From assembly GCA_024763535.1 (NCBI GenBank), contig JANTFH010000005.1, positions 4,612-68,611 of the forward strand: 64,000 bases of DNA, given 5' to 3'. The notes beneath the pieces were generated by a model that was not told the origin of the DNA, ran no database searches, and worked only from the letters and a program-made list of their open reading frames with translations. A program made the translations under genes and the position numbers. Below, piece after piece: positions 10,097-59,859 of the stretch; within the stretch, counting starts at the first letter, position 1; the number at the start of each line of letters is the position of its first letter. Origin of the DNA: Thermodesulfobacteriota bacterium. Lineage in GTDB: Bacteria > Desulfobacterota > Anaeroferrophillalia > Anaeroferrophillales > Tharpellaceae.

Positions 10097-10232
10097 GTTT
10101 AAGGTTTGTGAATTAGAATCTGGTGCCTGCGGATTCCCTTTGATTATGAAAACCGGGGAATATCTTGATGACGGCACTTACTTGCGGGCAACACCCGCGT
10201 TAGTGATAACTATATCATAGAGGTTGGTAGCG

Positions 10233-11405: not shown

Positions 11406-11493
11406 TTAGGGAAAGTGTAAATTTTTTAAGTTAGTTCGTAAGTTAGTTTGAGTTGCGGAGTCTGTTTTCGCATTAGTGAATGGGAGTCGGTTG

Positions 11494-13446
11494 ATGGCTG
11501 AGATTTTATTTAGTTCCTGGGGTGGCGAGGTAGTTGATAACCGCCAAAAAGATGGCCAGGACTTTGAGCCGGTTAATACAGTTGATTTACCGGAATATTT
11601 CAGACAGGATGAAGCGGTTAAGGCTCTTATGGGCTGGTACGGCATCGTTATTCGTGACCCGGAAACCGATATCGTCGATTTGAGTCGGGTCTATATCCAG
11701 GAAGTTCAGAATAAATCCTGTGGTAAATGTTTTCTCTGTCGGATCGGCACCCGGGTTATGGCTGAGACTCTGACACGAATCTGTAATGGACAGGGCAAAT
11801 CTGAAGATCTTGAAATCTTAAAACGCCTGGCTGATTCAATTCGTGAATCCTCGAAATGTAATATCGGCCAATCCGGGCCCTTGCCGATTCTCGACGCTTT
11901 AGAGCATTTCGCCGCTGATTTCGAAGCTGCAATCAGCGCACAAAAGAGTGTTGCTGCCGGTACCTACCACTCAAAACTGACCGCACCCTGTATGGATGCC
12001 TGCCCGATCCATTTAGATATTCCCAATTATGTAGAGTGTATAAAAGAGGGACGTTTTGCCGAATCGCTTGATATTATTCGGGAAAAACTGCCGTTGCCGG
12101 GAGTTGTCGGCCGCGTCTGTGTGCGCCCCTGCGAAGAGCACTGCCGGCGTATGAATCTTGATGCTCCGATTTCGATCAAATTTCTCAAGCGTTTTGTTGC
12201 CGATTATGAACTGAGCAAAGGCAAAGAGCCTGAATTTGCAATTGAACCTTCAGAAAAAACCGGGAAGGTTGCGATTGTCGGCGCCGGCCCCAGCGGTGCA
12301 ACCTGTGCTTTCCATCTTGCAAAGATGGGCCATGATGTTACCGTTTATGAGCGTTTCGATGAACCCGGCGGCATGTCGGCCATGGGGATTCCTGATTATC
12401 GCCTGCCGCGCCCTATTCTTAGAGAAGAGGTTGACCGCATTGAGCGTATGGGGGCGACCTTTAATTACGAAACCACGGTCGGTAAAGATATTAAACTCTC
12501 CCAGCTTGAAGCCGATAACGATGCCGTGTTTATCGCTATCGGGGCCCAGATGGGTACGACGATGGGGGTTGAAGGTGAAGAAGAGAACTATGCCGGTTAT
12601 ATCTCCGGGGTGCAGTACCTGTTGGATATCAACCAGGGTCGGGATCCTTATCCTGAAGGTAAAAAAGTAGCAGTCATCGGCGGCGGCAACGTGGCGATCG
12701 ACTGTGTGCGCTGCTCCTTCCGGGTGGGCAAGGACGATGTCAATCTTATCTATCGCCGGACCAAAAATGAAATGCCGGCTGATGATGTTGAAATCCATGA
12801 CGCGGAAGAGGAAAAAGTCAATTTTCACTATCTTACGCATCCGGTTAAAATTCTGGCGGAAAACGGTAAAGTTGTTGGTCTGCGCTGTGTTAAAATGGAG
12901 TTAGGCGAGCCCGACGAGAGTGGTCGCCGGCGGCCGCAGCCGATTGAAGGTTCGGAATTTGTTATAGAGTGCGACATTGTGGTCCCGGCGATTGGCCAGA
13001 CGATGGATTTGTCTCTGCTTGAAGGACGTGAAGACGTTAAAACCACCCGCTGGAAAACGATTGTCGTTGACGAAGTAACTAAACAGAGCGACCAGCCGAA
13101 AATCTTCTCCGGCGGTGACTGTGAAACCGGTCCCGGGGCTTTGATTACTGCTTGTGCCGGAGGGCGGACGGCCGCTTTTAATATCGATAAGCTGATCAAT
13201 GGTGAACCGCTGGATTATACCGAAGATGACTATTTTGATAAATTTTTCAGTAAGGTTAAGGTCTTTGACCCGGCTGAAGATATTGGATTCTTAGGCGGTC
13301 GCGAGCGGAAAGAGCTGGAGATGCTTGATCCCGACACCCGCAAATTCACCAACGCTGAAGTGGAACAGGGCTTTTCGATTAACGATGCCATGGCTGAGGC
13401 CGATCGCTGTCTGCGCTGTTATCGGGTGGCAACTGTAAGAGTATAA
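11494..13446 (+). CDS. Fusion iron-sulfur flavoprotein: NuoF C-terminal 4Fe-4S domain joined to a GltD/NfnB-like 2x[4Fe-4S] FAD/NAD(P)H oxidoreductase. It lacks the NuoF FMN/NADH-binding domain.
   Basis: N-terminus SCGKCFLCRIGT...SKCNIGQSGP matches the NuoF 51-kDa C-terminal cluster. It continues with CMDACP...GRVCVRPCEEHC, VAIVGAGPSGATCAF (FAD-binding) and KKVAVIGGGNVAIDC (NAD(P)H-binding), as in the glutamate synthase beta chain family. Confidence 0.8.
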   Translation: MAEILFSSWGGEVVDNRQKDGQDFEPVNTVDLPEYFRQDEAVKALMGWYGIVIRDPETDIVDLSRVYIQEVQNKSCGKCFLCRIGTRVMAETLTRICNGQGKSEDLEILKRLADSIRESSKCNIGQSGPLPILDALEHFAADFEAAISAQKSVAAGTYHSKLTAPCMDACPIHLDIPNYVECIKEGRFAESLDIIREKLPLPGVVGRVCVRPCEEHCRRMNLDAPISIKFLKRFVADYELSKGKEPEFAIEPSEKTGKVAIVGAGPSGATCAFHLAKMGHDVTVYERFDEPGGMSAMGIPDYRLPRPILREEVDRIERMGATFNYETTVGKDIKLSQLEADNDAVFIAIGAQMGTTMGVEGEEENYAGYISGVQYLLDINQGRDPYPEGKKVAVIGGGNVAIDCVRCSFRVGKDDVNLIYRRTKNEMPADDVEIHDAEEEKVNFHYLTHPVKILAENGKVVGLRCVKMELGEPDESGRRRPQPIEGSEFVIECDIVVPAIGQTMDLSLLEGREDVKTTRWKTIVVDEVTKQSDQPKIFSGGDCETGPGALITACAGGRTAAFNIDKLINGEPLDYTEDDYFDKFFSKVKVFDPAEDIGFLGGRERKELEMLDPDTRKFTNAEVEQGFSINDAMAEADRCLRCYRVATVRV

Positions 13447-13532
13447 TGCGGTCCTAAATCCGTGTTGAAGTATAGTTTTGCAAATAGAGTTTTGATTTTT
13501 TTAAGTAAAATTTTTACGCAGGGAAAATTAGC

Positions 13533-16208
13533 ATGGTCACGTTGACGATTGACGGCAAAGAAGTCACCGTCCCCCAGGGAACGACCATCCTTGAGGCGGC
13601 CCGGAGTGTCGATATCAGAATTCCGACACTCTGTTACCACGATCGTTTGAACCCTATCGGTTCATGTCGGATGTGTGTAGTTGAGATCGAAGGTTATACG
13701 CACCCGATGGCAGCCTGTACAACTCCGGTTGATGATGGGATTGAGGTTGTAACTAAATCTGATCGTCTGACTAGGATTCGTCAGGATTCGTTGAAACTGA
13801 TTCTGGTTAATCATCCGCTTGACTGTCCGGTTTGTGATAAGGGCGGCGAGTGCCTGTTGCAGGATTTGACCTACGAATTCGGGATTGATCAGGTTGAGTA
13901 TAAAGCGGCAAAAGTCGAGCGTGAATCACAGTATGCGACTCCGCTGATTCGTTACTGGCCCGACCGCTGTATCATGTGCCTGCGCTGCGTTACCGCCTGT
14001 CAGGAGATTAAGGGAATCGGCGCCATCAGTATTCAGGGAGACGGTTACGGAGCCCAGGTAGTGGCCGTAGATGCCGAGAAGTGTCAATCCTGCGGTGAGT
14101 GTCTGCAGGTCTGTCCGACCGGGGCCCTGACTGAGGATTTGAGCCGTTATAAAGGTCGCACCTGGCTGGTTGACAGAGTGCCGACCACCTGTACCTACTG
14201 CGGTTGCGGTTGTCAGCTTGAACTTAATGTTCAAAATGACCGGGTTATCGCCGTAACCACCCGGGAGGGGGTTGGCGTTAATCATGGCAGTCTCTGTGTC
14301 AAGGGCCGTTTCGGTTACGAATTTATCAACAGTGATGAACGGTTGACCAAACCGCTGATCAAGAAAAACGGCAAATTTGAAGAGGCGAGCTGGGATGAAG
14401 CTCTGGACCTGGTAGCCAGTAAGTTCTCTGCGATCAAAGAGGAACACGGCCCCGGTGCCCTGGCCGGCTTGACCTCGGCCCGTTGTACCAATGAAGAGAA
14501 CTACCTTTTCCAAAAATTTATGCGCGCGGCGGTCGGGACCAATAATGTCGATCACTGCGCCAGGCTCTGACACTCCTCAACTGTGGCCGGACTGGCCGCA
14601 ACGTTTGGCAGTGGAGCAATGACCAACCCGATTGCCGATGTCCTGAAATCAGAGACCGTATTGGTAACCGGAACTAATACCACGGAAAATCATCCGATTT
14701 TCGCCAATTACCTGAAAGAGGCCGTGCTTAAACACGGCACCAAGATTCTGGTGATCGATCCGCGGCGCATCGATCTGGTCGATTACGCCGAGCTCTACCT
14801 CCAGCCGAAACCGGGTACCGATATTGCCTGGATTAACGGTTTGATGCATATTATCATCAAGGAGGGCTGGGCGGCCCAGGATTATATCGACGAACGTTGT
14901 GAAGGTTTCGATGAATTTAAAAGCAATCTCGAAAAATTCACACCTGAATATGTTTCTGGAATTACCGGTCTGACCGAAGATGAGCTCTATGCCGCGGCCA
15001 AACTCTATGGCCAGGCGGCTCCGGCCTCAATCCTTTACGCCATGGGTATCACCCAGCATACCAGCGGTACCGATAATGTTAAATCATTAGGTAACCTGGC
15101 GATGCTTTGTGGTAACATGGGAGTTGCCGGCGGCGGCGTCAATCCGCTGCGGGGCCAGAACAATGTGCAGGGTGCCTGCGATATGGGTGGTCTGCCGAAT
15201 GTCTACACCGGTTATCAGAAGGTCGATGTTGATGAAGTGCGGGAGAAATTCGCCAAGGCCTGGGGGCTTGCGGCGGAGGCTATGGATTCAGCACCCGGTC
15301 TGAAACTGACCGAAATGTTTCCGGCAGCGGCCGAGGGTAAAGTCAAGGCTCTCTATATTATGGGTGAGAACCCGCTGGTCAGTGATCCCGATTTAACTCA
15401 TATTGAACACTGTATCGAAGCCCTTGATTTCTTCGTTGTGCAGGATATCTTTCTAACCGAAACGGCTAAGAAAGCCGATGTCGTGCTGCCCGGAGTCTCC
15501 TTTGCTGAAAAAGATGGAACCTTCGTCAATTCCGAGCGGGTTGTACAGCGGGTTCGTAAAGCATTAACGATTCCCGGCGAAGCTCGTGAAGACAGTGCTA
15601 TTATTGCCGATATCTCAACCCGTATGGGATATGAGATGAAATATGAAAGTGCCGCCGATATCATGAAAGAGATCAACGCTGTGACCCCGAGTTACGGCGG
15701 CATCACTTATGAACGTTTGGAAAACGGCGGCCTGGCCTGGCCCTGCCCCGACAGTGAACATCCCGGGACACCAATTCTGCATGTTGATAAATTTGCCCGC
15801 GGTAAAGGTCTCTTTTTCGCGATAGATCATCAGCCGCCGGCTGAACTCTGCGATAATGAGTATCCGTTTGTACTGTCGACCGGCCGTGTTCTCTCTCATT
15901 TCCATACCGGAACCATGACCCGCAAGGGTTCCGGCCTGAATAAGGTTCATCCTGAAGTCAAGGCTGAGATCAACCCTGAAGATGCCGCGCGTCTGGGGAT
16001 TGAAGCGGATGATCGTCTTAAGATTACCTCCCGCCGGGGTTCGATCGAGGTTAAAGCCATGCTCAGTGACCGTCCGGCAGCCGGGGTGGTATTTGTACCC
16101 TTTCACTTTCATGAAGTTGCAGTTAACCGTCTGACCAACGCGGCTCTCGATCCGGTTGCCAAAATTCCGGAATATAAGGTCTGCGCGATTAAGGTTGAAA
16201 AGGCTTAG
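13533..16208 (+). CDS. fdhA: NuoG/FdhA-like molybdopterin oxidoreductase catalytic subunit (formate dehydrogenase alpha-like) with selenocysteine encoded by in-frame TGA at 14568-14570
   Basis: ORFs 13533..14570 and 14583..16208 are in the same frame. The translation reads 2Fe-2S (CYHD...CRMC), HxxxCxxC, CIMCLRCVTAC, CQSCGECLQVCP, CTYCGCGCQ, then [29 protein letters not shown], the textbook Sec/Cys active-site motif of FdhA/FdhF. Confidence 0.85.
14582..14600 (+). ncRNA. SECIS-like hairpin 11 nt downstream of the fdhA UGA
   Basis: 7-bp stem tgtggcc/ggccgca with loop ggacu at +21..+25. Confidence 0.55.
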
Positions 16209-16265
16209 CCGGCAAAACGAGTCTAAATTATCGAAGTACTTTTACAGTTTGAAGAGGTATAACGG

Positions 16266-17252
16266 ATGCTGGAATTTATGACCATATTGATAATCAAAAC
16301 GTTGGTGGCATTCACCGTCAGCCTGCTGATTGTGGCCTATTCGACCTGGATCGAGCGTAAAGTTTTGGGTCATGTGCAGCTGCGACACGGGCCGCGTCGA
16401 GTCGGTTTCCATGGTCTTCTGCAGCCTATAGCCGATGGTATCAAAGGTTTTTTCAAAGAGGAGCTGATTCCTGATAACGCCGATAAACCGCTCTTTCTGC
16501 TGGCACCGATTATCAGTATCGGAGCGGCGGTTACATTAATTGTAATTGTTCCTTTCGGGGATAAGATTACCATTATGGGGCACGAAATAACCCTTTATCT
16601 GACTGATCTTGATGTCGGTATTCTCTTCGTTCTCGGAATTTCGACCATCGGCTCCTACGGTGGTATCCTCGGGGGCTGGTCCTCCGGTAATAAATACGGG
16701 GTCATCGGCGGTCTGCGTGGATCGGCCCAGATGATCAGTTATGAACTCTCCCTGGCATTGGCGGTAATTGCTGTAGTTATGGTCAGCGGTTCGTTGAGCC
16801 TGATCGATATCGTTAACTCTCAAACCGGACTCTGGAACATCGTCAAACAGCCGTTTGCCTTTGTCCTTTTTATTATCTGCGGCCTGGCCGAACTCAACCG
16901 GACGCCGTTTGATATGCCCGAAGCCGAGGCCGAACTGGCCTGTGGTTTCAATGTTGAGTACAGTTCCATGAAGTTCGCCCTTTTCTTTATGGCGGAATAC
17001 TGTCATATGTTTGTCTTTGCCGCGCTGGTGACGACCCTCTTCCTGGGTGGTTGGCATGGTCCCTTTATCGACGGGCCGCACTGGTTTTTCCTCAAGTGTT
17101 TTGTGATTATCTTTTTCTGCGTCTGGGAACGTTCGACCTTTCCGCGTTTGCGTTATGACCAGGTTATGAGCTTCGGCTGGAAAATTTTGCTGCCCTTCGG
17201 TCTTCTGAATATTCTTCTGACCGGGCTCTGGATGCTGATTTTCAACATGTAG
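16266..17252 (+). CDS. nuoH: NADH-quinone oxidoreductase subunit H
   Basis: Polytopic membrane protein, 328 aa, with a NuoH/ND1-like sequence (WIERKVLGHVQLRHGP...). Confidence 0.95.
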   Translation: MLEFMTILIIKTLVAFTVSLLIVAYSTWIERKVLGHVQLRHGPRRVGFHGLLQPIADGIKGFFKEELIPDNADKPLFLLAPIISIGAAVTLIVIVPFGDKITIMGHEITLYLTDLDVGILFVLGISTIGSYGGILGGWSSGNKYGVIGGLRGSAQMISYELSLALAVIAVVMVSGSLSLIDIVNSQTGLWNIVKQPFAFVLFIICGLAELNRTPFDMPEAEAELACGFNVEYSSMKFALFFMAEYCHMFVFAALVTTLFLGGWHGPFIDGPHWFFLKCFVIIFFCVWERSTFPRLRYDQVMSFGWKILLPFGLLNILLTGLWMLIFNM

Positions 17253-17306
17253 GATTAACCCAAACTGAGATAGTATTAGATTTAAGAATATAAATTTGAG
17301 GATAAT

Positions 17307-17783
17307 ATGGCTGACAAGGATTACATACTCAATATCAGTGACCGGCGCCCGACGGGTAAATATATCACGCCGATTCTGAAAGGCCTGGGTTACACGCTGA
17401 AGAATTTCTTCAGTAAGCCGATTACGATAAAATATCCGACCGAGCGCCGTGAAGTCAGCGACCGCTGGCGGGGCCTGCATCGTTTGAAAGTGGATGATCG
17501 GGGGGCTTTGAAATGTGTCGCCTGCGGCCTTTGCGCAAAGATCTGTCCGCCTAAGGCGATCACCATTGTGCCCTACGAAGAGGCCGGCGAAACCCGTTAT
17601 CCGAAAGAGTTTGTGATTGACGAGCTGCGTTGTATCTTCTGCGGCTTCTGTCAGGAAGCCTGTCCTAAAGATGCGATTGAGCTGACGAAAGTTTACGATT
17701 TTGTGGATTATAAACGCGAAGACTTTATCTTCGATATCGAAAAACTGAAAACCCCGGAAAAATATATCTTCAACGGCAAATAG
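17307..17783 (+). CDS. nuoI: NADH-quinone oxidoreductase subunit I (2x[4Fe-4S])
   Basis: Two ferredoxin-type motifs, CVACGLCAKICP and CIFCGFCQEACP. Confidence 0.95.
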   Translation: MADKDYILNISDRRPTGKYITPILKGLGYTLKNFFSKPITIKYPTERREVSDRWRGLHRLKVDDRGALKCVACGLCAKICPPKAITIVPYEEAGETRYPKEFVIDELRCIFCGFCQEACPKDAIELTKVYDFVDYKREDFIFDIEKLKTPEKYIFNGK

Positions 17784-17796
17784 TGGGAGTAGATTG

Positions 17797-18306
17797 ATGG
17801 AACTGGTATTTTTGTTGATATGCGGTGGAGTTGCGGTAATCGCCTCGCTGCTGGTTATCTTTGCTCGCTCCACCCTGCACAGTGCCCTGTGGATGGTTCT
17901 CTCCTTTTTTATGGTAGCGATAATCTACGTTCTGCTGCACGCTCAGTTTCTGGCTATGCTTCAGGTTATTGTCTACGCCGGAGCGATTATGATGTTTATT
18001 GTCTACGCCATCATGATGCTGAATCTGCGTCAGGAAGCCAAATCCAAGGTCGCAACCCGAATCTCCAAGGTAGTTGGAGTCGGGGCTCTGATTGTGCTTT
18101 TTCTCGAACTTACTCTGATCGGCGTAAGTCACAATATGGCCACAATACAGGGTCCGGTAACGGATAAGCTTGTGGCCACCTACGGCCGGGTAGCGGTAAT
18201 CTCAAATTTTCTTTTTTCCGACTATCTGCTGCCGTTCGAGGTCGCATCCATTCTCCTGACTGCGGGTGTTGTCGGGGCCGTAGTTCTGGCTAAACGTGAA
18301 AAATAG
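17797..18306 (+). CDS. nuoJ: NADH-quinone oxidoreductase subunit J
   Basis: Hydrophobic NuoJ-like protein in nuo gene order. GGGAG ribosome-binding site before ATG 17797. Confidence 0.9.
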   Translation: MELVFLLICGGVAVIASLLVIFARSTLHSALWMVLSFFMVAIIYVLLHAQFLAMLQVIVYAGAIMMFIVYAIMMLNLRQEAKSKVATRISKVVGVGALIVLFLELTLIGVSHNMATIQGPVTDKLVATYGRVAVISNFLFSDYLLPFEVASILLTAGVVGAVVLAKREK

Positions 18307-18317
18307 AGGGAAAGGTA

Positions 18318-18623
18318 ATGGTTGATAATCAAAGTATATATCTGACGTTTGCGGTTATTCTGTTTGTCATCGGCGCGGCCGGTGCCATCTGCCGCCGTAA
18401 TGCGATTGTTGTCTTTATGTGTATTGAAATTATGCTGGCCGGAGTCAGTATTGCATTTGTAACCTTCAGTCGTGCCAATCACTCTCTGGACGGTATCTTT
18501 ATGGTTCTGTTTGTTATGGCGGTTGCTGCCGCAGAAGCAGCGGTCGGTCTGGCGATTTTTCTTTTGATGTATCGCAAACAGGGCTCGATCGATCTGGATA
18601 AGTTTAATCTGTTGAAGTGGTAG
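18318..18623 (+). CDS. nuoK: NADH-quinone oxidoreductase subunit K
   Basis: 101 aa with 3 transmembrane segments, NuoK/ND4L-like. Confidence 0.9.
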   Translation: MVDNQSIYLTFAVILFVIGAAGAICRRNAIVVFMCIEIMLAGVSIAFVTFSRANHSLDGIFMVLFVMAVAAAEAAVGLAIFLLMYRKQGSIDLDKFNLLKW

Positions 18624-18724
18624 ATCTGTTTAGCTGAAGCTCGATCTTATTGTGTAAATTTAGAATCTCGTAAACTGAGTGTTTTGAGATAACGTTTTAA
18701 GATATTTTTTAAGGAGATAGAGGT

Positions 18725-20815
18725 ATGTTCGATTATATCTGGTTGGTACCGGTCTTCCCGGCCATCGGAGTTTTGATCAACGGTCTGCTTGGACGTCGTC
18801 TAGAGGCGATTAACAAGAGTTTGATCCATTGGATCGCCTGCGGTGCGATCGCCCTCTCCTATATCGTTACCTGTACTATTTTCTACCAGCTCCTGCAGCT
18901 CCCTGAAGCTGAACGATTTTATCAGGTGACCTGTTTTTCCTGGATCAACAGCGGGGTCTTACAGACTTATATTGCTTATCAGATTGATCCCCTGTCAATG
19001 ATGATGGCGATGTTTGTTATCGGGGTCGGCTTTCTCATCCATGTCTATTCGATTGGCTATATGGATGGCGATCCGGGTCGTTACTACCGCTTCTTTGTTT
19101 ATTTGAATCTTTTTATGTTCTCGATGATCAATCTGATTCTCGCCAACAACTATCTTTTGATGTTCTTAGGCTGGGAAGGGGTTGGGTTGTGTTCCTATCT
19201 TTTGATCGGCTTCTGGTTTGATGACGAGGCCAATGCAATTGCCGGCAAAAAAGCTTTTATTACCAACCGGGTGGGTGATTTCGCTTTTTTGATCGGGATG
19301 TTTCTGCTCTTTACCGGACTGGGTGAACATGGTGTCTGGAGCCTGCAGTTTAACGAAGTGTTCAGTAACGTTCACTACCTTTCAACCAGTCAGGCAACCG
19401 CCATCTGTCTCCTCTTTTTTATCGGTTGTACGGCCAAGTCAGCTCAGATTCCACTCTATGTCTGGCTGCCCGATGCCATGGCCGGCCCGACTCCGGTCTC
19501 TGCCCTGATCCATGCCGCTACTATGGTGACCTCGGGTGTCTATATGATCACCCGCTCCAATATCCTATATTCTATGTCACCTCTGGCGATGGGGGTTGTG
19601 GCGACGGTTGGAGCTTTGACGGCGCTGTTTGCCGCGTCGATCGGCCTGGTGCAGAATGATATCAAAAAAGTTCTGGCCTATTCAACTGTGAGTCAGCTCG
19701 GTTATATGTTCCTAGGGCTCGGTGTCGGTGCCTTCGCCGCCGGTATGTTTCATGTTTTAACCCATGCATTCTTTAAGGCTCTTATGTTTTTGGGATCTGG
19801 TGCGGTTATTCACTCTATGCATCATGCTTATCATAAAGTGCATTCCCATGATGATGCTCAGGATATGCGAAATATGGGCGGATTGAAGAGTAAGACCCCC
19901 ATAACTTATTGGACCTTTCTGGTTGGCGCATTGGCAATTGCCGGGGTTCCGGGACTTTCCGGCTTCTTCAGTAAGGATGAAATTCTCTGGCAGGCATACA
20001 GCAGTCCACAGGGCCACTGGTTGCTCTGGCTTATAGGTGCAATGGCTGCGGGAATGACTGCATTTTATATCTTCCGATTAATTTTTATGACATTCTTTAA
20101 CGATTGCCGGGCAGGAGACGCGGCTGAGCATATCCATGAATCGCCTCTGACCATGACGATACCGCTGATGGTTCTGGCCGTGCTGGCAGCTTTTGGTGGT
20201 TATCTAGGCGTTCCGCATGCTTTGGGTGGCAGCAATCTTTTTGAGCACTTCCTGGAGCCGGTAATGGGAATGGGTGATGGGAAACTGTTGCAGGATGCCA
20301 CGACTGCGGTTGCCCACGGTGCCCATCATGCCGTGCATGCAGCTGCCGGTCACATTACTGAGGCCGCACACGCTGTTGCCGGGCATGCCGAGGGTGGTGC
20401 CCATCATGTTGGACATGAACCGCTCTGGGTTGAGTATTTATTGATGGCCGTTTCCGTTGCTTTAGCTTTCGGTGGCATCTTTGTCGCCTATATGTTTTAC
20501 ATTGTTAAACGTGAACTGCCGGTGGCTCTGGCGGAGAAATTTTCCTTTATTCACCGTCTGTTGCTGAATAAATGGTATATTGACGAACTCTACGATGTGG
20601 TTATTATTTCACCCCTGCGTGGTTTCAGTTATTTTCTCTGGAAAGGGATTGATGTCGGAGTGGTTGATTACATCGTCAACGGAGTTGCCCGGATAGTTGG
20701 CTGGGGAAGCAGTGCCGTGCGCTACATACAGTCCGGTTATGTGCAGAGTTACGCGGTTTCAGTCGTATTCGGTACGGTGGTGCTGCTGGCCTACTACTTC
20801 TTGAAGGCACTCTAG
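18725..20815 (+). CDS. nuoL: NADH-quinone oxidoreductase subunit L (antiporter-like), with a His-rich insertion
   Basis: 696 aa with NuoL/ND5 motifs (WLPDAMAGPTPVSALIHAATMVTSGVY). His-rich insertion at about 20246..20422. Confidence 0.95.
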   Translation: MFDYIWLVPVFPAIGVLINGLLGRRLEAINKSLIHWIACGAIALSYIVTCTIFYQLLQLPEAERFYQVTCFSWINSGVLQTYIAYQIDPLSMMMAMFVIGVGFLIHVYSIGYMDGDPGRYYRFFVYLNLFMFSMINLILANNYLLMFLGWEGVGLCSYLLIGFWFDDEANAIAGKKAFITNRVGDFAFLIGMFLLFTGLGEHGVWSLQFNEVFSNVHYLSTSQATAICLLFFIGCTAKSAQIPLYVWLPDAMAGPTPVSALIHAATMVTSGVYMITRSNILYSMSPLAMGVVATVGALTALFAASIGLVQNDIKKVLAYSTVSQLGYMFLGLGVGAFAAGMFHVLTHAFFKALMFLGSGAVIHSMHHAYHKVHSHDDAQDMRNMGGLKSKTPITYWTFLVGALAIAGVPGLSGFFSKDEILWQAYSSPQGHWLLWLIGAMAAGMTAFYIFRLIFMTFFNDCRAGDAAEHIHESPLTMTIPLMVLAVLAAFGGYLGVPHALGGSNLFEHFLEPVMGMGDGKLLQDATTAVAHGAHHAVHAAAGHITEAAHAVAGHAEGGAHHVGHEPLWVEYLLMAVSVALAFGGIFVAYMFYIVKRELPVALAEKFSFIHRLLLNKWYIDELYDVVIISPLRGFSYFLWKGIDVGVVDYIVNGVARIVGWGSSAVRYIQSGYVQSYAVSVVFGTVVLLAYYFLKAL

Positions 20816-20895
20816 AAACAGCTCTAAATTTAACGAAATTTTTTAATACAATTTATATCCCAAAGTTTAAATAGATTCCGCAGGGAGAGAGATAG

Positions 20896-22479
20896 ATGAA
20901 TGAACTAGGTTTTCCGATAATCAGCCTTGTGACCTTTTTTCCGATCTTCGGGGCGTTGATCCTGATGTTTATCGATAAAGAGGCCAAAGATACGCTCCGG
21001 GGCACTGCCATGGTTTTTGCCATGATTGAGTTCTTTATCTCTCTGCCGATCATCTTCGCATTTCAAAGCGGTACTGCAGATATGCAGTTCGTGGAGCGCT
21101 ACACCTGGATTAAGAGTGCCGGTTTAAGTTATTATATCGGTCTGGACGGTATCAGTCTCTGGATCTTTATGCTGACCACCTTCTTAACTCCGATCTGTGT
21201 TTTGTGTTCCTGGAACTATATTCAGAAACGGGTCAAAGAGTTCATGATCTGCCTCCTGTTACTGGAGACGGCCATGCTGGGGGCTCTGGTCTCCCTGGAC
21301 CTGATCCTTTTCTATATCTTCTGGGAACTGATGCTGATTCCGATGTATTTCCTGATCGGAGTCTGGGGTGGAGACAATCGGATCTATGCCGCAGTTAAGT
21401 TTTTTATCTATACCGCCGCCGGTTCGGTCTTCATGCTGCTCTCGATATTCTTTCTCTACTATTACAACCATAAGGTCACCGGCGTCTATACCTTTGATCT
21501 GCTGGAACTTTACAAACTTAATATTCCGGTATCGACCCAGTTCTGGCTCTGTCTGACCTTTTTTGTCTCGTTCGCCATTAAGGTACCGATGTTTCCGCTC
21601 CACACCTGGCTGCCGGATGCTCATGTCCAGGCTCCGACGGCCGGTAGTGTAATTTTGGCAGGTGTTCTCTTGAAAATGGGAACTTACGGTTTCATGCGCT
21701 TTGCGATTCCGCTCTTTCCCTACGCCAGTCATCAGTTTACACCGGTTATTGCGACATTAGCGGTAATCGGCATCATCTACGGGGCTCTGGTAGCCCTGAT
21801 CCAGCCTGATATGAAGAAACTGGTTGCCTATTCCAGTGTCAGTCACTTGGGTTATGTCATGCTCGGTATCTTTGCTTTCAATATGCAGGGGGTTGAGGGT
21901 GGTCTCTATCAGATGCTCAACCATGGTATCAGTACCGGCGCTCTCTTCCTGATCGTCGGTATGCTTTATGAGCGTCGTCATACCCGGATGATCAAGGATT
22001 TCGGTGGTATCGCCAAGGTGATGCCGGTCTATGCCACCTTTTTCATGATTATGACCCTGTCATCAATTGCGGTTCCCGGAACCAACGGTTTCGTCGGCGA
22101 GTTTATGATCCTGGTCGGAGCTTTCCGCTCAATTCCGATGCATGCTGTTTTTGCCACTTCCGGGGCCATCCTCGGGGCGCTTTATATGCTCTGGATGTAT
22201 CAGCGGGTGATGTTTCAGCCCCTCGATAAAGAGGAAAACAAGGTCTTGAAAGATCTCAATGCCCGGGAAATTGTGACTCTGCTGCCGCTGGCGATACTGG
22301 TTTTCGTTATGGGTTTCTTTCCTGGTTATTTCATCAATAAGATGGACGCTTCATGTCAGCACTTCCTGAAAAACTATAATCAGCAGGTGGCCATGTATGA
22401 ACAGCAGGTTGAAGATGGCAGTGCCGCCAAACTGGCCGCGGTGATGAGTGACAATAATTTAGAGAAGAAGATCGACTGA
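20896..22479 (+). CDS. nuoM: NADH-quinone oxidoreductase subunit M
   Basis: 527 aa, NuoM/ND4 family (WLPDAHVQAPTAGSVILAGVLLKMGTYG). Ends in a TGA stop. Confidence 0.95.
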   Translation: MNELGFPIISLVTFFPIFGALILMFIDKEAKDTLRGTAMVFAMIEFFISLPIIFAFQSGTADMQFVERYTWIKSAGLSYYIGLDGISLWIFMLTTFLTPICVLCSWNYIQKRVKEFMICLLLLETAMLGALVSLDLILFYIFWELMLIPMYFLIGVWGGDNRIYAAVKFFIYTAAGSVFMLLSIFFLYYYNHKVTGVYTFDLLELYKLNIPVSTQFWLCLTFFVSFAIKVPMFPLHTWLPDAHVQAPTAGSVILAGVLLKMGTYGFMRFAIPLFPYASHQFTPVIATLAVIGIIYGALVALIQPDMKKLVAYSSVSHLGYVMLGIFAFNMQGVEGGLYQMLNHGISTGALFLIVGMLYERRHTRMIKDFGGIAKVMPVYATFFMIMTLSSIAVPGTNGFVGEFMILVGAFRSIPMHAVFATSGAILGALYMLWMYQRVMFQPLDKEENKVLKDLNAREIVTLLPLAILVFVMGFFPGYFINKMDASCQHFLKNYNQQVAMYEQQVEDGSAAKLAAVMSDNNLEKKID

Positions 22480-22622
22480 TTTAATCTTTATTTAAGGTGG
22501 AACCCGGCCCGAACTGTTTATATTAAGTTTCCGGAAATCCGGGATACATGCCGGCTGGCTTATCCCAGACTGTGCAATATACAAATTATTATATTTTTTA
22601 AGATAAATTTTGGAGGAGAGTG

Positions 22623-24092
22623 ATGGAAATGCTGGATTTTGTTGTCCCGGCACTCAATCTTAAGGCAATTCTGCCGCAGTTGATCCTGGCCTTGACGGCA
22701 TTGACCGTACTATTGGTCGATGTCTTTGCCAAAGGCAAGGGTAAAACCTCCCTGGGAGCCTTGTCACTGGCGGGGGTGGTTGCCGCTTTAATTACTCTCA
22801 TGCTGTCTCGCGGCAGTCATGAATCGGCCTATGCCGGTATGCTGATGGCGGATGGCTTCGGTTTTTTCATCACCCTGATTGTCTGTATCGTTACCTTTTT
22901 GACGATTCTTGCTTCGATCAATTATGAACGTATCTGTCCTGATATCAAGGCCGGTGAGTTTTATTGCCTGATGCTGTTTGCCGCTTTCGGGATGTCCTTT
23001 ATGGGGAATGCCGGCAACCTGATTATGATCTTCGTGGCTCTGGAAACCATGTCTATCTCGATCTATGTTCTGGCCGGCTTCAAGACCTCTGATGCGAAAT
23101 CGATCGAGTCGGCATTGAAATATTTTCTCCTGGGAGCCTTTGCCTCGGGATTTCTGCTCTTCGGATTTGCCCTGGTTTACGGTGCCGCCGGAACCCTGGA
23201 TATCGTCAAACTCGGTGCCTTCTTCACTGCTAACCCCGACTCACTGCATCATCCTATGGTTTTAGGCGGTATGGCATTGATGACGGTGGGCTTCGGCTTT
23301 AAGGTTGCCATGTTCCCGTTTCACATGTGGACTCCGGATGTCTATGAAGGGGCTCCGACCGTGGTTACCGGATTTATGGCCACCGGGGTCAAGGCCGCAG
23401 CCTTTGCCGCGTTGGTAAGGGTATTTTTCGTTGGTTTTGCGCCGCTGCAGGCCGACTGGACGACGATCATGTGGGTAGCGGCGTTGCTGACGATGACCAT
23501 CGGCAACCTGGTTGCGATCTCACAGACCAATATCAAACGGATGCTGGCCTATTCCAGTATCGCTCATGCCGGTTACCTTCTGGTCGGCTTTGTGGTCGGT
23601 ACCGAACTGGCCCGTTCCGGTATGCTCTTTTATCTTTTAGCCTACGCCTTTGCCAATATCGGAGCTTTTGCGGTAATCTCCGCCATGGGTAAAGATGGAG
23701 AAGAGTATACCGAGCTTAATGATTTCTCCGGGGCCGGTTTTAAATATCCCTTCCTGGGTCTGATGATGAGCATCTTTATCTTCTCCATGGCCGGGATTCC
23801 TCCGGCGGCGGGTTTTATGGGTAAATTCTTCATCTTCTCGGAAGCGATTAAATCCGGATATATCTGGCTGGCGATCTTCGGAGTCATCAACAGCGTAATC
23901 TCGCTTTACTACTATCTTGGGGTTATCGTGCGCATGTACTTCAAGGAGCCCGAGCGCGAAATCACAATCATGGCTCCGGCCGGAACCATGATTGCCGCTC
24001 TCTCGATTGCCGCTTTCGCGGTTCTGCAGATGGGAATCTTTCCCTCCTATATCTGGGATCTGGCAAGAGAGTCGGTGAAGATGATTATGTAG
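22623..24092 (+). CDS. nuoN: NADH-quinone oxidoreductase subunit N
   Basis: 490 aa, NuoN/ND2 family. GGAGGAGAG ribosome-binding site before ATG 22623. Confidence 0.95.
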   Translation: MEMLDFVVPALNLKAILPQLILALTALTVLLVDVFAKGKGKTSLGALSLAGVVAALITLMLSRGSHESAYAGMLMADGFGFFITLIVCIVTFLTILASINYERICPDIKAGEFYCLMLFAAFGMSFMGNAGNLIMIFVALETMSISIYVLAGFKTSDAKSIESALKYFLLGAFASGFLLFGFALVYGAAGTLDIVKLGAFFTANPDSLHHPMVLGGMALMTVGFGFKVAMFPFHMWTPDVYEGAPTVVTGFMATGVKAAAFAALVRVFFVGFAPLQADWTTIMWVAALLTMTIGNLVAISQTNIKRMLAYSSIAHAGYLLVGFVVGTELARSGMLFYLLAYAFANIGAFAVISAMGKDGEEYTELNDFSGAGFKYPFLGLMMSIFIFSMAGIPPAAGFMGKFFIFSEAIKSGYIWLAIFGVINSVISLYYYLGVIVRMYFKEPEREITIMAPAGTMIAALSIAAFAVLQMGIFPSYIWDLARESVKMIM

Positions 24093-54973: not shown

Positions 54974-55843
54974 TCATCCGATGATATTTTCACTGACCAG
55001 TTCATTCATGAGAGCGTTGATCTCCGATTCGCTGTTGGCTATCTGGCGGCTTTCACAGCCGCTCAGAACCACACTCTGAATCTTTTTAACCTTGGTCGGT
55101 GAACCGGAAAGACCGCATTGAACCGGGTCGGCTTTAATCGATTCTACGTTCCACTCTTTTATATGACTTAAAATACTGCAGTTCTCTGTTGCCAGATAAC
55201 TTTCGCCATAGGACGAATTGCAGATCTCTTTACCGATATTTTTGTAGGTCATTACCTTCTTGGCATTGGCCGAACGGGGTTCGTTGGCACTGGCGGTAAT
55301 CGTCAAAAGTACCGGGAAGCCGCTTTTGACAATCTCGTAACCATCTTCGACCGAGCGTTTCGCGGTGATTGATTCATCATTAATTTCAGTTACGGAGGAT
55401 ATGCAGGTGAGCTGGTTGATCTCAAGTTTTTCCGCAATCTGCGGTCCGACCTGAGCCGTATCACCGTCAATTGCCTGGCGGCCGCAGAGGATAAGGTCAT
55501 AGTCACCAGTCTGTTCAATGGCACACTTTAACGCGTATGAGGTTGCCAGGGTGTCGGCTCCGGCAAAGCGCCGGTCGGAGACCAGAATGGCGTCATCAGC
55601 TCCCCGATAGAGGCACTCTTTCAAAACCTCGACCGCATTCGGCGGCCCCATAGAGATGCAGGTAACGTGACCGCCGGCTCTCTCCTTGATTTTTAACGCC
55701 TCTTCCAGGGCATTGAGGTCTTCAGGGTTGAAAATTGTCGGTAGAGCGGCTCGATTTACAGTCCCATCTTCCTTCATGGCCTCCCCGGTAACGTTGTGTG
55801 TATCGGGAACCTGCTTGACGGTTACAATCATCCGTAAACCCAT
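54974..55843 (-). CDS. etfB: Electron transfer flavoprotein beta subunit. The start could instead be M5 at 55831.
   Basis: The MIVTVKQVPD N-terminus is typical of EtfB. Confidence 0.9.
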   Translation of the reverse strand: MGLRMIVTVKQVPDTHNVTGEAMKEDGTVNRAALPTIFNPEDLNALEEALKIKERAGGHVTCISMGPPNAVEVLKECLYRGADDAILVSDRRFAGADTLATSYALKCAIEQTGDYDLILCGRQAIDGDTAQVGPQIAEKLEINQLTCISSVTEINDESITAKRSVEDGYEIVKSGFPVLLTITASANEPRSANAKKVMTYKNIGKEICNSSYGESYLATENCSILSHIKEWNVESIKADPVQCGLSGSPTKVKKIQSVVLSGCESRQIANSESEINALMNELVSENIIG

Positions 55844-56430
55844 GAATGATACCTCGCTTTATTCTTAATGGTTGAAAGTTAACTGTATGGCCTTTGTTAC
55901 AATTATAAATCAAGGGCGGCTAATTAGCAAACTAATCAGGAAAAGACAAGGAAAACTATATTTGCTGCTGGTGTAAAAATTATATCACATGCAAACACCG
56001 ATTTTCGGGGTTTCGAGGAACCAGGATTTGGGGCCGTCAGGTGCCGCTGGGAAGGGGGTAAGTCGCGCCATTAAACAAGATATATTTATATCCAATAATT
56101 CGCCTTTTTGAATATATAAATATCTGAATTTAATAATAATTTTTTTTTCACAAAAAATTAAGAATAAGTTAATTTAGCTATTGACAGGAGCAATAATATC
56201 AACTAGAGCTAACTTTATAGAGTGGTCTGTAACGAAGATCAGTTTAACTCGCAAATAGAGATTAATGTTGACAAAGGGGGTGGGTTTTAGGCGCAACATG
56301 ATTTGCAGTTTAATTGATTGTTTCTGGTTGTGAGGGATAGCATCTTGCAAGCCCGCTTATTATGCAAACTTATGTAGAATGTATAAGCGGAAAATAAAGA
56401 TCTATTTTAACTTAGGGAGAAGAGAGGGGT

Positions 56431-57441
56431 ATGAAAATGAAGAAAAATTGGCTTTTGCTGGGTGCAGGGTTGCTGATGGTGCTGGCGATGACCATCACGG
56501 CCTGTACGACTTTGAGTGATCAAAGAGCCAGCGTTCTCAAGTTGCCGGTTCCCGTTCAGGGGGCTCAGTTTGCCGGGAGTGAGGCTTGTGCCGACTGCCA
56601 CGAAGAACTGGTGGCAACTTTCAGCGGCTCGATTCATGATCGGATCCTGGCCAAAGAGACAGCGATCGGCATGAAAGGCTGTGAGACCTGCCATGGTCCC
56701 GCCAGCCTGCATATGGATTCTGAGGATCCGGAACAGATTATCGCTTTTGAAAATCTGGATGCCGGAACTTCATCCGCGGTCTGTCTGCGTTGTCATAGTG
56801 ACGGTGAACATTTCGACTGGGCCGGTACCTCGCATCCGATGAATGATGTCGGTTGCTTGAGCTGTCATAAAATCCATAATCCACCGGTGGCGAAAAATTC
56901 GCTGGAAAAGGCCGAGCCGGAACTCTGTTATGAGTGTCATGCGCTGGAGCGGGCGAAGATGTACTATCCTTCGCATCATCCGGTTAAAGAGGGCAAGATG
57001 GTCTGCAGTGACTGTCACGCCAATCACGGTTCAATGGTTAATAACCTGAAAACCGATGAACGTCTTAACGATCTCTGTTTAAATTGTCATGCCCGTTATC
57101 AGGGCCCGTTCGTTTTCGAACATTCACCGGTTTCCGATGATTGTATGATCTGTCACGATCCGCACGGTACGGTTTCTAATAATCTCAAAAAAGCGAATGA
57201 ACCTTACCTCTGCCTGCAGTGTCACGAGCCGCATTTCCACGCCGGCCGGACTTCAACCCCGACGGGTGTAATGAAGGATCCGTATGGTAATTTGGTTCCA
57301 GAGAAAGATTATAACAGCGGTAATAAAAATGTTTGGGCTCAGGCTTACGCTACCAAATGTACTCAGTGTCATGCCCAGATTCACGGCAGCGATCTGCCCT
57401 CCCAGACGGTTCCCGGACAGGGCGGGGGTTTAACCAGATAA
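56431..57441 (+). CDS. Periplasmic decaheme c-type cytochrome (MtrA/PioA/MtoA-like size and heme count)
   Basis: Signal peptide with a possible lipobox (ITAC) and 10 CxxCH motifs in 336 aa. A beta-barrel gene follows 15 nt downstream. Confidence 0.85.
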   Translation: MKMKKNWLLLGAGLLMVLAMTITACTTLSDQRASVLKLPVPVQGAQFAGSEACADCHEELVATFSGSIHDRILAKETAIGMKGCETCHGPASLHMDSEDPEQIIAFENLDAGTSSAVCLRCHSDGEHFDWAGTSHPMNDVGCLSCHKIHNPPVAKNSLEKAEPELCYECHALERAKMYYPSHHPVKEGKMVCSDCHANHGSMVNNLKTDERLNDLCLNCHARYQGPFVFEHSPVSDDCMICHDPHGTVSNNLKKANEPYLCLQCHEPHFHAGRTSTPTGVMKDPYGNLVPEKDYNSGNKNVWAQAYATKCTQCHAQIHGSDLPSQTVPGQGGGLTR

Positions 57442-57455
57442 TTTAAGGAGAGATT

Positions 57456-59780
57456 ATGAAACGTATTGCACAATACACGATTCTGGCCCTCTGCCTGGTG
57501 CTGGTACCGGTTCTTGCGTGGGCGGGACAAACCACGGGCAGTGTCGGGATTGGTATTCAGGGAGTCGATATTAACGACTCACGCGAGGGTGCGGCTGAGT
57601 ATCTTACTGCCGAACAGGGCGGCCGGCCGACATTTGACATGACGGTCAACGGCGAACAAAACGGCGTCAAATATGATTTCGGGATGAATTTTCTCAATGA
57701 AGATGATCTTGGTGGCAATCTTGATTTAGACCTGAAGCGTTATTTTAGGACTAAAAACAGTTACCAGAAATTTAACCACTGGTTGGAAAATGATGACCTC
57801 GTTAACCATAATGAGGATCCTGATTTTAGGTTTCCAACCGGAATGACAGAAACAAACCCTTACTACATTGCGGCCGCCAGTAAGGCAGTTTTTAATAAAC
57901 CGCAAGTAATGGGACCCAATATTGCGGTAGCCCGGAATACTTCCTGGGGCGATGATCTTTATGTTGTCCGTGATGAATTTGTTTCCGAGAATGAATTTCT
58001 GCTTCCCGGAGCCGAGTTCATTAAAATTCATGCAAAATATCGGATGGAACAGCGTGAAGGTTACGAACAGACCAAGACTTTGAGTAAATGCGGCGGCTGT
58101 CATCTGGCGGCGGATAAACACAAAATCGATGAAGAGACCCAGGATTTTCAGATCGGGGCGACCGCTCATTTAGGTCTGGTAACTCTGGATTACACCTTCC
58201 TGCGACGCACTTTTGATGAGAATTCAAACGCGCCGACACATACTTATATGTCAGCCGGGTCATTGCAGAAAAAGATGGCGATTGACGGATCTGATGGTGA
58301 AGTGATCTATGCCGCGACCCCGGATTCCGAGAAGGATTCTCATATTATCAAAGCTCAGGTGGCGTTGCCGATGAATACGGCGGTTTTCGGTAGCTACGTT
58401 CATACCGAAATCGATAATAATGACGCCAAGAGCAATAATGTGGGTGATGTAACTATCAGCAGCGATCCGGGTTTTGATTATGATGCCTACGCGATGCGGG
58501 TTACCTCTTCACCGCTTCACTTTATGACGATGTCATTCAAGTATCGTCATGAAGATCTCGACGCTGATGATGTTACAATTCTGTTTGATGACTCAGCTTA
58601 TGACCCGCTGGGGCGTGATTCCCAAGTACTGGATCCGACAAACTACGGTCTCCATGGCTACTCGGAAGAGCATGACGGCTGGCCGCGTGAACGGCAGTCG
58701 ACCCTGTCTCGCAATATCGACACTTACGGGGCCGAGTTCAAATTCAAGGTTTTCAAACGTACCAACCTGCTGGTTGGCTGGGAGCGGGAAGAGGAAGATA
58801 TCGATGTTGAGTGGGAGACCACCACGGATATCTATTCGGTTGCTTTAAACAGTCGTCTGATTAAAAATTTGAGTCTGCGTCTGCAGTATGATTACGAGGA
58901 TATTGACGATCCTTTCGCTAATGAGCACGCGGCTTATACTGATCCGGCAGCTATGCTTACCTGGCTTAAGGCGACGGTCGATCCCACCTGTGGTCTGCCG
59001 GCCTGTAGTATTAAAGGTATGGCCAGTCCCGGCAGCCCCAAAGCGGCCGAGTATACGGTGATGTATAACAGTCGTCAGCTTGATCTGACTTCCGAGCCCG
59101 AAAGTGCGCATCATTTCAAAGCGCATGCCTCTTATAACATTACACCGCGCATTGTTGCCAGTGGTCATTTCCAGTATGATCTGGAAGAGGTCAAAATTGA
59201 TGCGCCGGGACATGGCAACACCTTCGACAAGGAGATGTATGCTGTGGGGGCCGATCTTTTTCTCGCACCGCTGGATAATCTGACGTTTACGTTGGCTTAT
59301 AACTACCTCGATATGGAGGATCAGGCTTTTCTCTCCGCGGTTGCCTATGGCGGCTGAGCCGGCTCTTTTTTGTCCCCAAGTTATGGGGTCACATTGTCGG
59401 ATATGGAGAACAACACCGAAGTTCACACCCTGCTTGTAAGTGCTGATCTTGCAGCGACTGAGAAACTTAAATTCAACGGTGGTATAATCTTTAACTGGAG
59501 CAAATCCGAGATGGATAATCTCAGTGCCTCCTATTATGAAGGTAAGCAGCCGGCCGCATTTGGTTACGACCATGCGATCGCTTTCAGTACCTGGGAAGAT
59601 AATACCGATCAGGATATTCAGGAGGTTGAGTACTACCTGGGTTGTTCGTATGATGTCAATGATATGATGTCAGTTAATATTAATGCCTCATATACCGACT
59701 ATACCGATGACGAGCCCTATCTTTATGATACTGATGGCGATCTCCTCCTGGTTAATGCCGGTCTGACTTTCAGATTCTAA
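57456..59780 (+). CDS. Outer-membrane beta-barrel protein (MtrB/PioB-like porin partner of the decaheme cytochrome). It contains an in-frame TGA at 59355-59357 and one CGGCH motif.
   Basis: Signal peptide and amphipathic beta-strand pattern. ORFs 57456..59357 and 59370..59780 share a frame with no intervening stops. Only the downstream piece ends in the typical outer-membrane-protein C-terminal signature ...GLTFRF. Confidence 0.55.
59374..59388 (+). ncRNA. SECIS-like hairpin 16 nt downstream of the UGA at 59355
   Basis: Stem cccca/ugggg with loop aguua at +24..+28 from the UGA. Confidence 0.3.
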
Positions 59781-59822
59781 GCTGAAATTTAGTTGTTGAA
59801 AATGAGGGCTTAACCAACACAA

Positions 59823-59859
59823 AAAGGCCCCGACTTTATTAAAGTCGGGGCCTTTTTTT
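59823..59859 (+). terminator. Intrinsic terminator after the cytochrome-porin operon
   Basis: Hairpin aaaggccccgacttt/aaagtcggggccttt followed by a 7-nt T-run. Confidence 0.75.

Follow-up and report, generated by a model that had tools for sequence, protein, structure and literature searches.

Organisation of the cytochrome and barrel genes

The 64,000-nucleotide stretch of DNA considered here (the window), from a Thermodesulfobacteriota bacterium, carries on its forward strand a gene for a decaheme c-type cytochrome followed directly by a gene for an outer-membrane beta-barrel protein. The original prediction, made from the letters alone, had presented this pair as a porin-cytochrome conduit resembling MtoAB/PioAB. 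The two genes are referred to below as omcK-like and omcL-like, and their products as OmcK and OmcL, after the families to which the analysis assigned them. The elements of the locus, in window coordinates, are as follows:

56084..56209, + strand: block conserved in related loci upstream of the pair, containing a putative promoter (TTGACA at 56181-56186, 17-nt spacer, TAGAGC at 56204-56209)
56431..57441, + strand: omcK-like gene, for a 336-aa decaheme c-type cytochrome, an MtrA homolog and predicted outer-membrane lipoprotein
57456..59780, + strand: omcL-like gene, for a predicted 774-aa, 26-strand outer-membrane barrel, with the UGA at codon 634 read through
58089..58103, + strand: CGGCH heme-attachment motif in OmcL (aa 212-216), in the loop between the 24-residue strands S7 and S8
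59355..59357, + strand: in-frame UGA read as selenocysteine (Sec), residue 634, motif AYGG-U-AGS, in the S21-S22 loop
59374..59388, + strand: hairpin resembling a selenocysteine insertion sequence (SECIS), with CCCCA, loop AGUUA and UGGGG
59821..59857, no strand assigned: intrinsic terminator-like hairpin (17 bp, 8 GC, A and T runs at its flanks)

Counting of the first open reading frame (ORF; 56431..57441, + strand) yielded the expected 336-aa cytochrome with exactly 10 CxxCH motifs, and the barrel gene lies right behind it, as had been proposed, the cytochrome gene ending 15 nt before the start at 57456. The announced barrel of about 775 aa was recovered as a frame, but this frame is interrupted by a TGA at 59355-59357 that had been overlooked: 633 codons run from 57456 to the TGA, and a further 140 codons lead to a TAA at 59778-59780. 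The read-through product begins with a signal peptide (aa 1-23) and ends in ...NAGLTFRF, and a terminal ...LTFRF-type ending is a typical C-terminal signature of outer-membrane proteins.

The strong terminator described earlier behind the pair is present as a GC-rich 17-bp hairpin with a T-run at 59821-59857. The hairpin closes the two-gene unit and, since A and T runs flank it, could act in both directions. The 3' neighbour of the omcL-like gene encodes a DUF2520/Rossmann protein (at 60072) and is followed by dnaG. No other multiheme ORF was present among the window ORFs between 55844 and 60072, in agreement with the earlier statement that no MtrC/OmcA-like gene lies downstream. On the 5' side, the omcK-like gene is divergent from an electron transfer flavoprotein (ETF) beta-type gene (54974..55843), as noted before for etfB, and the AT-rich region between them (55844-56430, about 37% GC) measures 587 bp, not 520 bp.

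Within this upstream region, the AT-rich block at 56084-56209 is the sole conserved stretch in a comparison of six related loci. It contains the putative TTGACA/TAGAGC promoter, which would leave a 5' leader of about 220 nt; the leader is unconserved except for a purine-rich ribosome-binding site, GGAGAAGAGAGGGGT. The weak TAGAGC -10 element was not picked up by a consensus promoter scan. A sigma-54 promoter upstream of omcK was also considered and was rejected on spacing, as read from the sequence.

Evidence that the in-frame UGA of omcL encodes selenocysteine

Comparison across relatives indicates that the UGA at residue 634 encodes selenocysteine. A single in-frame TGA was found at the homologous site in all eight genome or assembly loci and in all 37 metagenome loci that span the site, at protein identities down to 27%, and TAA or TAG occupies the codon in none of these 45 loci. 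In related loci the frame continues for 140-160 codons after the TGA, up to a terminal aromatic residue. The peptide immediately following the TGA is conserved and no conserved start codon is found there, and the only C-terminal aromatic beta-signal of OmcL lies beyond it. Three full-length relatives present a Cys at the UGA position: that of Desulfuromonas thiophila (WP_092076389, "VYVG-C-FSE"), whose locus is a bare cytochrome-barrel pair, that of an Acidobacteriota metagenome-assembled genome (MAG) and the representative P0098. Among the members listed, Sec is confined to OmcL proteins bearing the CxxCH motif (0 without it), and Sec-less relatives carry Cys, or a nearby His, in its place. 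Small residues stand on either side of Sec634 (G-U-A-G).

The truncation of database records is a further line of evidence for Sec. Almost everywhere, in genomes and metagenomes alike, the barrel is split into an ORF of 570-660 aa and a "hypothetical protein" of 115-128 aa. The 36 close homologs of the barrel in the database all end at the same place, and the 32 homologs of the post-TGA piece are without exception separate ORFs of 89-128 aa. Likewise, about 100 of the 150 representatives listed, out of 218 clusters (50% identity, E of 1e-3 or better), end in ...[YFM]x-G, that is, they are cut at the UGA codon. Gene calling thus leads to systematic mis-annotation of the family, and protein databases lack its C-terminal strands.

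This almost universal split can also be taken to speak for a genuine stop, whether in a pseudogene, through sequencing error or in a barrel made of two polypeptides, together with the lack of an Rfam SECIS family match and the unremarkable single-sequence fold reported below. Against it stand the invariance of TGA over all 45 loci, the conserved peptide without a start codon of its own, the Cys orthologs and the covarying hairpin, as well as the need of the barrel for all 26 strands and its C-terminal Phe. The family is, in addition, curated by NCBI as a selenoprotein family (NF041027; PMC13188914). The probability of a genuine stop is thus close to nil, and pseudogene, sequencing error and split gene can be regarded on these comparisons as effectively excluded for OmcL. 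The 2026 review that lists NF041027 among selenoprotein families does so without motif or discussion (PMC13188914), and the NF041027 family is not mentioned in PMC2398784, traced as reference 61 of that review.

The surroundings of the Sec codon differ between clades. A pair of Cys residues, at positions -7 and +13 from Sec, is complete in 23 distinct sequences, absent from 16 and mismatched in three. The pair characterises Geobacter-like clades (loci L007 and L024-L052), and the window clade belongs to the 16 without it. The two residues probably form a disulfide staple across the Sec hairpin that has been lost in the window clade.

A covarying hairpin follows the UGA

The region downstream of the UGA contains a SECIS-like hairpin. 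In 40 of 42 distinct sequences, its loop, AGUU(U/A), begins at a distance of 24-25 nt from the U of UGA (24 nt for the AGUUA loop of the window). The codon phase of the AGUU motif differs between the two main clades, and conservation of the peptide therefore does not account for it. In an alignment of the post-UGA region anchored on the AGUU loop, 89.7% of the hairpin cells are paired, compared with 61.7% in 500 shuffles, none of which reaches the observed value, and with 58% or less in slid controls. The covariation score was 0.64 against 0.18 in the shuffles (again 0/500), and compensatory changes were observed at six of the seven pairs. No Rfam SECIS family was detected in a gathering-threshold scan of the whole window or in a permissive scan of 59300-59480, and the single-sequence fold after the window UGA was non-significant (z-score -0.14); it is the covariation across loci that supports the hairpin.

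The Sec codon of the window also lies in the loop of a small GGC-UGA-GCC hairpin (59352-59364) that is followed by CTTTTTT and resembles a terminator. This hairpin, which is not kept in distant clades, is probably incidental.

OmcL, a predicted 26-strand barrel, has a heme motif of its own

OmcL matched the family model NF041027 (GSU2204 family CXXCH-containing (seleno)protein) with 503.2 bits, over a cutoff of 350. The alignment covers aa 10-633 and model positions 1-580 of 580, and the end of the model coincides exactly with the TGA. The similarity to the MtrB/PioB family that had been anticipated for the barrel was also borne out, both by Pfam MtrB_PioB (PF11854), which was passed with 42.4 bits (cutoff 23) over only aa 43-482, and by the fold. 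The latter was modelled with AlphaFold2 from an alignment of 77 rows, composed so that the C-terminal fragments were placed correctly, with the Sec residue entered as X. The resulting model (predicted local distance difference test, pLDDT, 83.4; predicted template-modelling score, pTM, 0.81) has 26 strands; a single-sequence model was uninformative (pLDDT 29). The top Foldseek match of the model was MtrB (6r2q_B, E=5.7e-22, template-modelling (TM) scores 0.62/0.73, 11% identity), with 22-strand TonB-dependent receptors reaching TM scores of 0.43 or less. A profile search of the PDB by sequence did not reach MtrB; fold comparison alone did.

All 12 turns after even-numbered strands of the model span 2-4 residues, and the loops after odd-numbered strands reach up to 65 residues. 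Short periplasmic turns and long extracellular loops are the usual pattern of outer-membrane barrels. The CxxCH motif (aa 212-216) is placed between S7 (186-209) and S8 (216-239), and Sec634 between S21 (609-632) and S22 (642-666). Both loops are predicted to be extracellular, because both follow odd-numbered strands. The two hairpins concerned are the longest of the model, with strands of 24-25 residues versus 13-18 elsewhere, and a separation of 14 strands puts them roughly opposite each other on the rim.

The CGGCH motif at aa 212-216 of the barrel had been overlooked earlier, as had the lipobox of the cytochrome (ITAC, Cys25). The two Cys and the His of the motif are present in 117 of 117 aligned members of the OmcL family, almost all complete representatives listed have one CxxCH at this position, and the sequence flanking the CxxCH hairpin is conserved family-wide. 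OmcL is hence predicted to be a c-type heme protein itself instead of a mere sheath, and the earlier description of the system as one with no outer cytochrome is misleading to this extent.

Three further His residues of OmcL, His108, His296 and His655 (window positions about 57777, 58341 and 59418), are kept across much of the wider family, within the motifs F-x-H-x-L-x-H-D, P-D-S-x-K-x-x-H-x-x-K-A and D-x-H-T, respectively. In the model they are placed close to where S5, S10 and S22 are predicted to end on the outer side, and they are candidate distal heme ligands or contacts of OmcK hemes. Two relatives carry additional N-terminal segments on the barrel: a domain with a class-I-like cytochrome c motif, CAVCH, in P0182 (783 aa), and a Cys-rich, zinc-ribbon-like segment in P0201 (744 aa).

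OmcK is an MtrA-type cytochrome with a predicted lipid anchor

OmcK matched NF041028 (GSU2203 family decaheme c-type cytochrome) with 430.4 bits (cutoff 325), its aa 16-336 aligning with model positions 3-317 of 317, that is, over the full length. The score on the general DmsE family model (TIGR03508) was 247.9 bits (cutoff 192.2), and the difference between about 430 and 248 bits argues for a clade separate from PioA/MtoA. The alignment with MtrA (PDB 6r2q_A, E=2.7e-47, aa 48-324) spans all ten heme motifs and, with the TIGR03508 match, upholds the earlier placement of the cytochrome in the MtrA class; the match to the MtrC/MtrF-domain Pfam model was weak (34 bits). In 29 OmcK homologs, the distinct sequences recovered beside OmcL-type barrels, the lipobox Cys (Cys25, at 56503-56505 in the window) is invariant, with a +2 residue other than Asp. 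OmcK is, as far as these alignments allow it to be read, an MtrA-type wire with a lipid anchor.

Eleven His residues outside the heme motifs are also invariant in all 29 homologs, a number that would allow each of the ten OmcK hemes to be bis-His-ligated without the barrel. Sec as the ligand of an OmcK heme was considered and rejected on this count of 11 invariant spare His for 10 hemes.

In the 6R2Q structure the N-terminus of MtrA lies at the periplasmic end. The simplest reading is therefore that the lipid anchor of OmcK would sit in the inner leaflet, beside the periplasmic rim of the barrel. The published view of the family is the inverse: OmcK is taken as an extracellular cytochrome, without an adjacent periplasmic cytochrome (PMC10553843). 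OmcK would then be a surface lipoprotein entering the barrel from outside, with an unlinked periplasmic cytochrome feeding the inside. The absence of an adjacent periplasmic cytochrome, as remarked in that study, is in keeping with such a topology, as are a lipobox like those of the surface cytochromes MtrC and OmcB, the historical name of outer-membrane cytochrome and an "extracellular" prediction (PMC13194489, Table 3). The end-to-end alignment, however, is with MtrA, which is inserted in the barrel from the periplasmic side, and not with MtrC, represented only by the 34-bit MtrC/MtrF Pfam match. The periplasmic N-terminus of MtrA fits an inner-leaflet anchor, and the heme and Sec of the barrel, both predicted to lie outside, would make an outer cytochrome redundant. 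We consider the inverted topology improbable.

The pair is conserved as a two-gene module

The proteins of Geobacter that define the two families are GSU2203, which is OmcK, and GSU2204, a "putative cytochrome c family protein", both reported to be up 2.4-2.7-fold with hematite (PMC4070692). The pair was named the OmcKL conduit in bacterial partners of anaerobic methanotrophic archaea (ANME) by Murali et al. 2023 (PMC10553843), and in ANME consortia the OmcKL homologs of HotSeep-1 were expressed 4-fold above OetABI (PMC10553843).

The original prediction had suggested looking for a third gene in relatives. In the 22 longer loci recovered, as in the window, exactly one decaheme gene adjoins the barrel gene, ending 0-61 nt before it, and no third cytochrome gene was found; the sole locus with another multiheme ORF within about 7 kb is L039. 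In the window clade (to about 51% identity) the pair occupies a fixed position, with plsX/rpmF or acyl-CoA dehydrogenase/etfAB genes upstream and DUF2520-dnaG-rpoD downstream, and this fixed housekeeping position argues for vertical inheritance. The neighbourhoods of relatives contained no substrate-binding domain or accessory gene co-conserved with the pair. Of the relatives that bear a name, a Candidatus Tharpella MAG stands nearest (82% identity); others are labelled Thermodesulfobacteriota. In the Tharpellota genomes, Speth et al. (PMC9213671) found no terminal reductase that they could recognise, and extracellular electron transfer was not among the options that they considered; OmcKL might serve this Tharpella-like lineage as the respiratory outlet, or inlet, that is missing.

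These data bear on the proposed likeness to PioAB/MtoAB and on the reading of the pair as an Fe(II)-oxidising conduit whose barrel is only passive. A two-gene module of the MtrA/MtrB superfamily is indeed present, and the decaheme and the barrel pass the DmsE/MtrA-family and Pfam MtrB_PioB models, respectively. The likeness ends there: more specific curated families fit both proteins much better, the decaheme is lipid-anchored, and the barrel carries a conserved CxxCH and Sec. The hint at an Fe(II) oxidiser also failed to find support, since no PioC, MtoD or CymA-type gene is adjacent at the window locus, the neighbourhoods of relatives being similar, and the family comes from anaerobic lineages of sulfur and metal cycling, the host itself belonging to an anaerobic Desulfobacterota/Tharpellota-like group. 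An Fe(II)-oxidation conduit of the PioAB/MtoAB type is hence very improbable.

A proposed outer redox site on the porin

We assign the pair with high confidence to the OmcK/OmcL type (GSU2203/GSU2204 family) of conduit, with the Sec and the heme as real features of it. For the way in which it may work, we favour, with moderate confidence in the mechanism as a whole, an eleven-heme wire whose outermost site would lie on the porin. OmcK, with an N-terminal lipid as its anchor on the periplasmic leaflet of the outer membrane, would thread the 26-strand OmcL as MtrA threads MtrB, giving a wire of ten bis-His hemes. The covalent heme of OmcL, at the tip of the S7-S8 hairpin outside, would be the eleventh and outermost heme and would take the role that MtrC or OmcB plays in three-component systems. 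Sec634, carried by the tip of the S21-S22 hairpin, would sit at the extracellular mouth too, either tuning or ligating this heme or serving as the last redox-active atom, in contact with the external substrate. Which way the electrons flow, outward to minerals or sulfur species or inward from a partner, does not follow from the sequence. Electron uptake, which the original prediction had raised, may occur; it has been suggested for the bacterial partners of ANME (PMC10553843).

Several points weigh against this outer-site mechanism. The structural model does not fix the distance between heme and Sec, the bend of the hairpins or the distal heme ligand, and its confidence is low in the Sec loop (residues 632-642, pLDDT below 50). 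With 14 strands between them, the two hairpins would both have to fold over the pore in order to meet. The CxxCH motif is retained in full-length relatives lacking both Sec and Cys, so Sec is not universally needed for the heme. We also know of no structural precedent for a heme on a loop that crosses the membrane during folding by the beta-barrel assembly machinery (BAM). The orientation assumed for OmcK in PMC10553843 is the opposite one, and the searched literature contained no biochemical data on family members and no functional discussion of the heme or Sec of the porin.

The role of Sec634 admits a second reading that overlaps with the outer-site mechanism. The complex would be a surface reductase and not a general-purpose wire: OmcK would supply the electrons, and the heme/Sec site of OmcL, with Sec as the catalyst, would reduce a specific external chalcogen or metalloid (S0/polysulfide, selenite/tellurite or arsenic species). 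In known selenoproteins Sec is nearly always a catalytic redox residue. The confinement of Sec to CxxCH-bearing members among those listed, the Cys ortholog of the sulfur reducer D. thiophila and the presence of a UshA/SoxB-like heme selenoprotein in the same window point in this direction, and in Geobacter the Sec-containing cytochrome ExtKL belongs to a porin cluster tied to selenite/tellurite reduction (PMC5877670). A substrate-binding domain or accessory gene co-conserved with the pair, however, is missing, the single Sec of the window clade has no resolving Cys, Cys(-7) and Cys(+13) both being absent, and the induction reported is by Fe oxides and in consortia performing direct interspecies electron transfer (DIET), not by chalcogens (PMC4070692, PMC10553843). 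A surface reductase is thus possible, though unlikely.

A bolder version of the outer-site mechanism places Sec634 as the distal axial ligand of the porin heme, or within bonding distance of it. This would amount to a natural His/selenolate heme at the outer mouth of the conduit, of low potential and switchable in its ligands, at which the last electron-transfer or catalytic step on an external substrate would take place. Weak hints at it are the confinement of Sec to CxxCH-bearing members, the small residues beside Sec634 and the Cys or nearby His of Sec-less relatives. We regard such direct contact as rather doubtful.

Other redox and selenoprotein genes in the window

Three further genes of the window encode proteins related to these functions:

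3509-4975, + strand: UshA-like "PCGU" selenoprotein gene (NF041198), TGA at 3665-3667, APCG-U-HKNPRGG
5887-8100, - strand: 737-aa protein with 16 CxxCH motifs and an N-terminal NapC/NirT/NrfH-type domain, divergent from the UshA-like gene
13533-16208, + strand: FdhA-type selenoprotein gene, TGA at 14568-14570, motif CARL-U-HSSTVAGL

The host uses Sec elsewhere, as evidenced by the two in-frame-TGA selenoprotein genes in this list. The FdhA-type product (891 aa) combines NuoG-like 2Fe-2S and 4Fe-4S domains with a formate-dehydrogenase-alpha-type molybdopterin subunit, and its post-TGA part scores 665.9 bits on TIGR01591. The gene sits in a nuo-like operon (about 9599-24092), with a GC-rich hairpin after its UGA. 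The UshA-like protein has a signal peptide, a C-terminal four-heme c554-like domain and weak SoxB-like matches, and its post-TGA part reaches 264 bits against the NF041198 cutoff of 275. The product of 5887-8100 is a candidate for an inner-membrane quinol-to-periplasm link and could feed periplasmic cytochromes and OmcKL.

Significance and comparison with known systems

The locus bears on the question of where electrons leave or enter two-component conduits without an outer cytochrome, for which the heme and Sec of the porin are suggested here as the site. Reading OmcK as the MtrA-like inner component also addresses the puzzle posed by ANME partners, in which a periplasmic cytochrome beside OmcKL is absent. 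Confirmation of these features would make OmcL an integral outer-membrane beta-barrel that contains Sec, the only one known to us. Surveys of extracellular electron-transfer genes under-annotate omcL because gene callers split the gene. The value of the locus hence lies in a corrected gene model, in the re-reading of OmcK as the inner component and in the idea of a redox site for a conduit lacking an outer cytochrome. The conduit also suggests extracellular electron exchange as a physiology of the uncultured Tharpella-like lineage, and the genetically accessible GSU2203/2204 of G. sulfurreducens offer a tractable target.

Among known systems, sequence comparison identifies the locus as a further member of the known and curated, biochemically uncharacterised OmcKL kind, and not of PioAB/MtoAB. 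It belongs to the same families (NF041028 and NF041027) as OmcK/OmcL of G. sulfurreducens, HS1_RS02760/02765 of HotSeep-1 and the pair of Seep-SRB2, and shares with them the position of the decaheme gene directly upstream of the barrel gene, the CxxCH motif of the porin and a UGA where the NF041027 model ends. Unlike the Geobacter-like branch, to which it is only about 27% identical, the window clade lacks the Cys(-7)/Cys(+13) pair and occupies a fixed locus, with etfAB or plsX upstream and DUF2520-dnaG-rpoD downstream.

The resemblance to Shewanella MtrCAB (6R2Q) extends to a decaheme homologous to MtrA at all ten motifs and to a 26-strand barrel nearest MtrB. The pair differs from MtrCAB in having no MtrC/OmcA-type third component, in its lipoprotein decaheme and in a barrel with CxxCH and Sec. 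With PioAB (Rhodopseudomonas palustris TIE-1) and MtoAB (Sideroxydans, Gallionella) the pair shares the combination of decaheme and barrel without an outer cytochrome, within the same Pfam/TIGRFAM superfamilies, but other subfamilies fit it better, it has no PioC, MtoD or CymA companion, its barrel is predicted to be redox-active and its hosts are anaerobes, not Fe(II) oxidisers. PioA and MtoA are soluble periplasmic proteins, unlike the cytochrome described here, with its ITAC lipobox and a Cys invariant in 29 of 29 homologs.

Cyc2 is encoded by a single gene and is an outer-membrane barrel, much smaller, with one c-type heme motif of its own near the N-terminus. In OmcL, as in Cyc2, the porin polypeptide would also be the redox site; OmcL, unlike Cyc2, has a partner decaheme and Sec, and NCBIfam/Pfam family scans detected no homology between the two. 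Geobacter ExtHIJKL is likewise a cluster for an outer-membrane porin-cytochrome system, with a selenoprotein among its products (PMC5877670, PMC13188914), but there Sec is in the cytochrome and not in the porin, the families are others, and the cluster contains extra rhodanese and accessory genes. Finally, the distinction from Geobacter Pcc drawn in the original prediction stands: OmaB-OmbB-OmcB comprises a periplasmic octaheme cytochrome, a roughly 20-stranded porin and a dodecaheme lipoprotein, whereas the system described here has two genes, ten hemes in its cytochrome and a predicted barrel of 26 strands.

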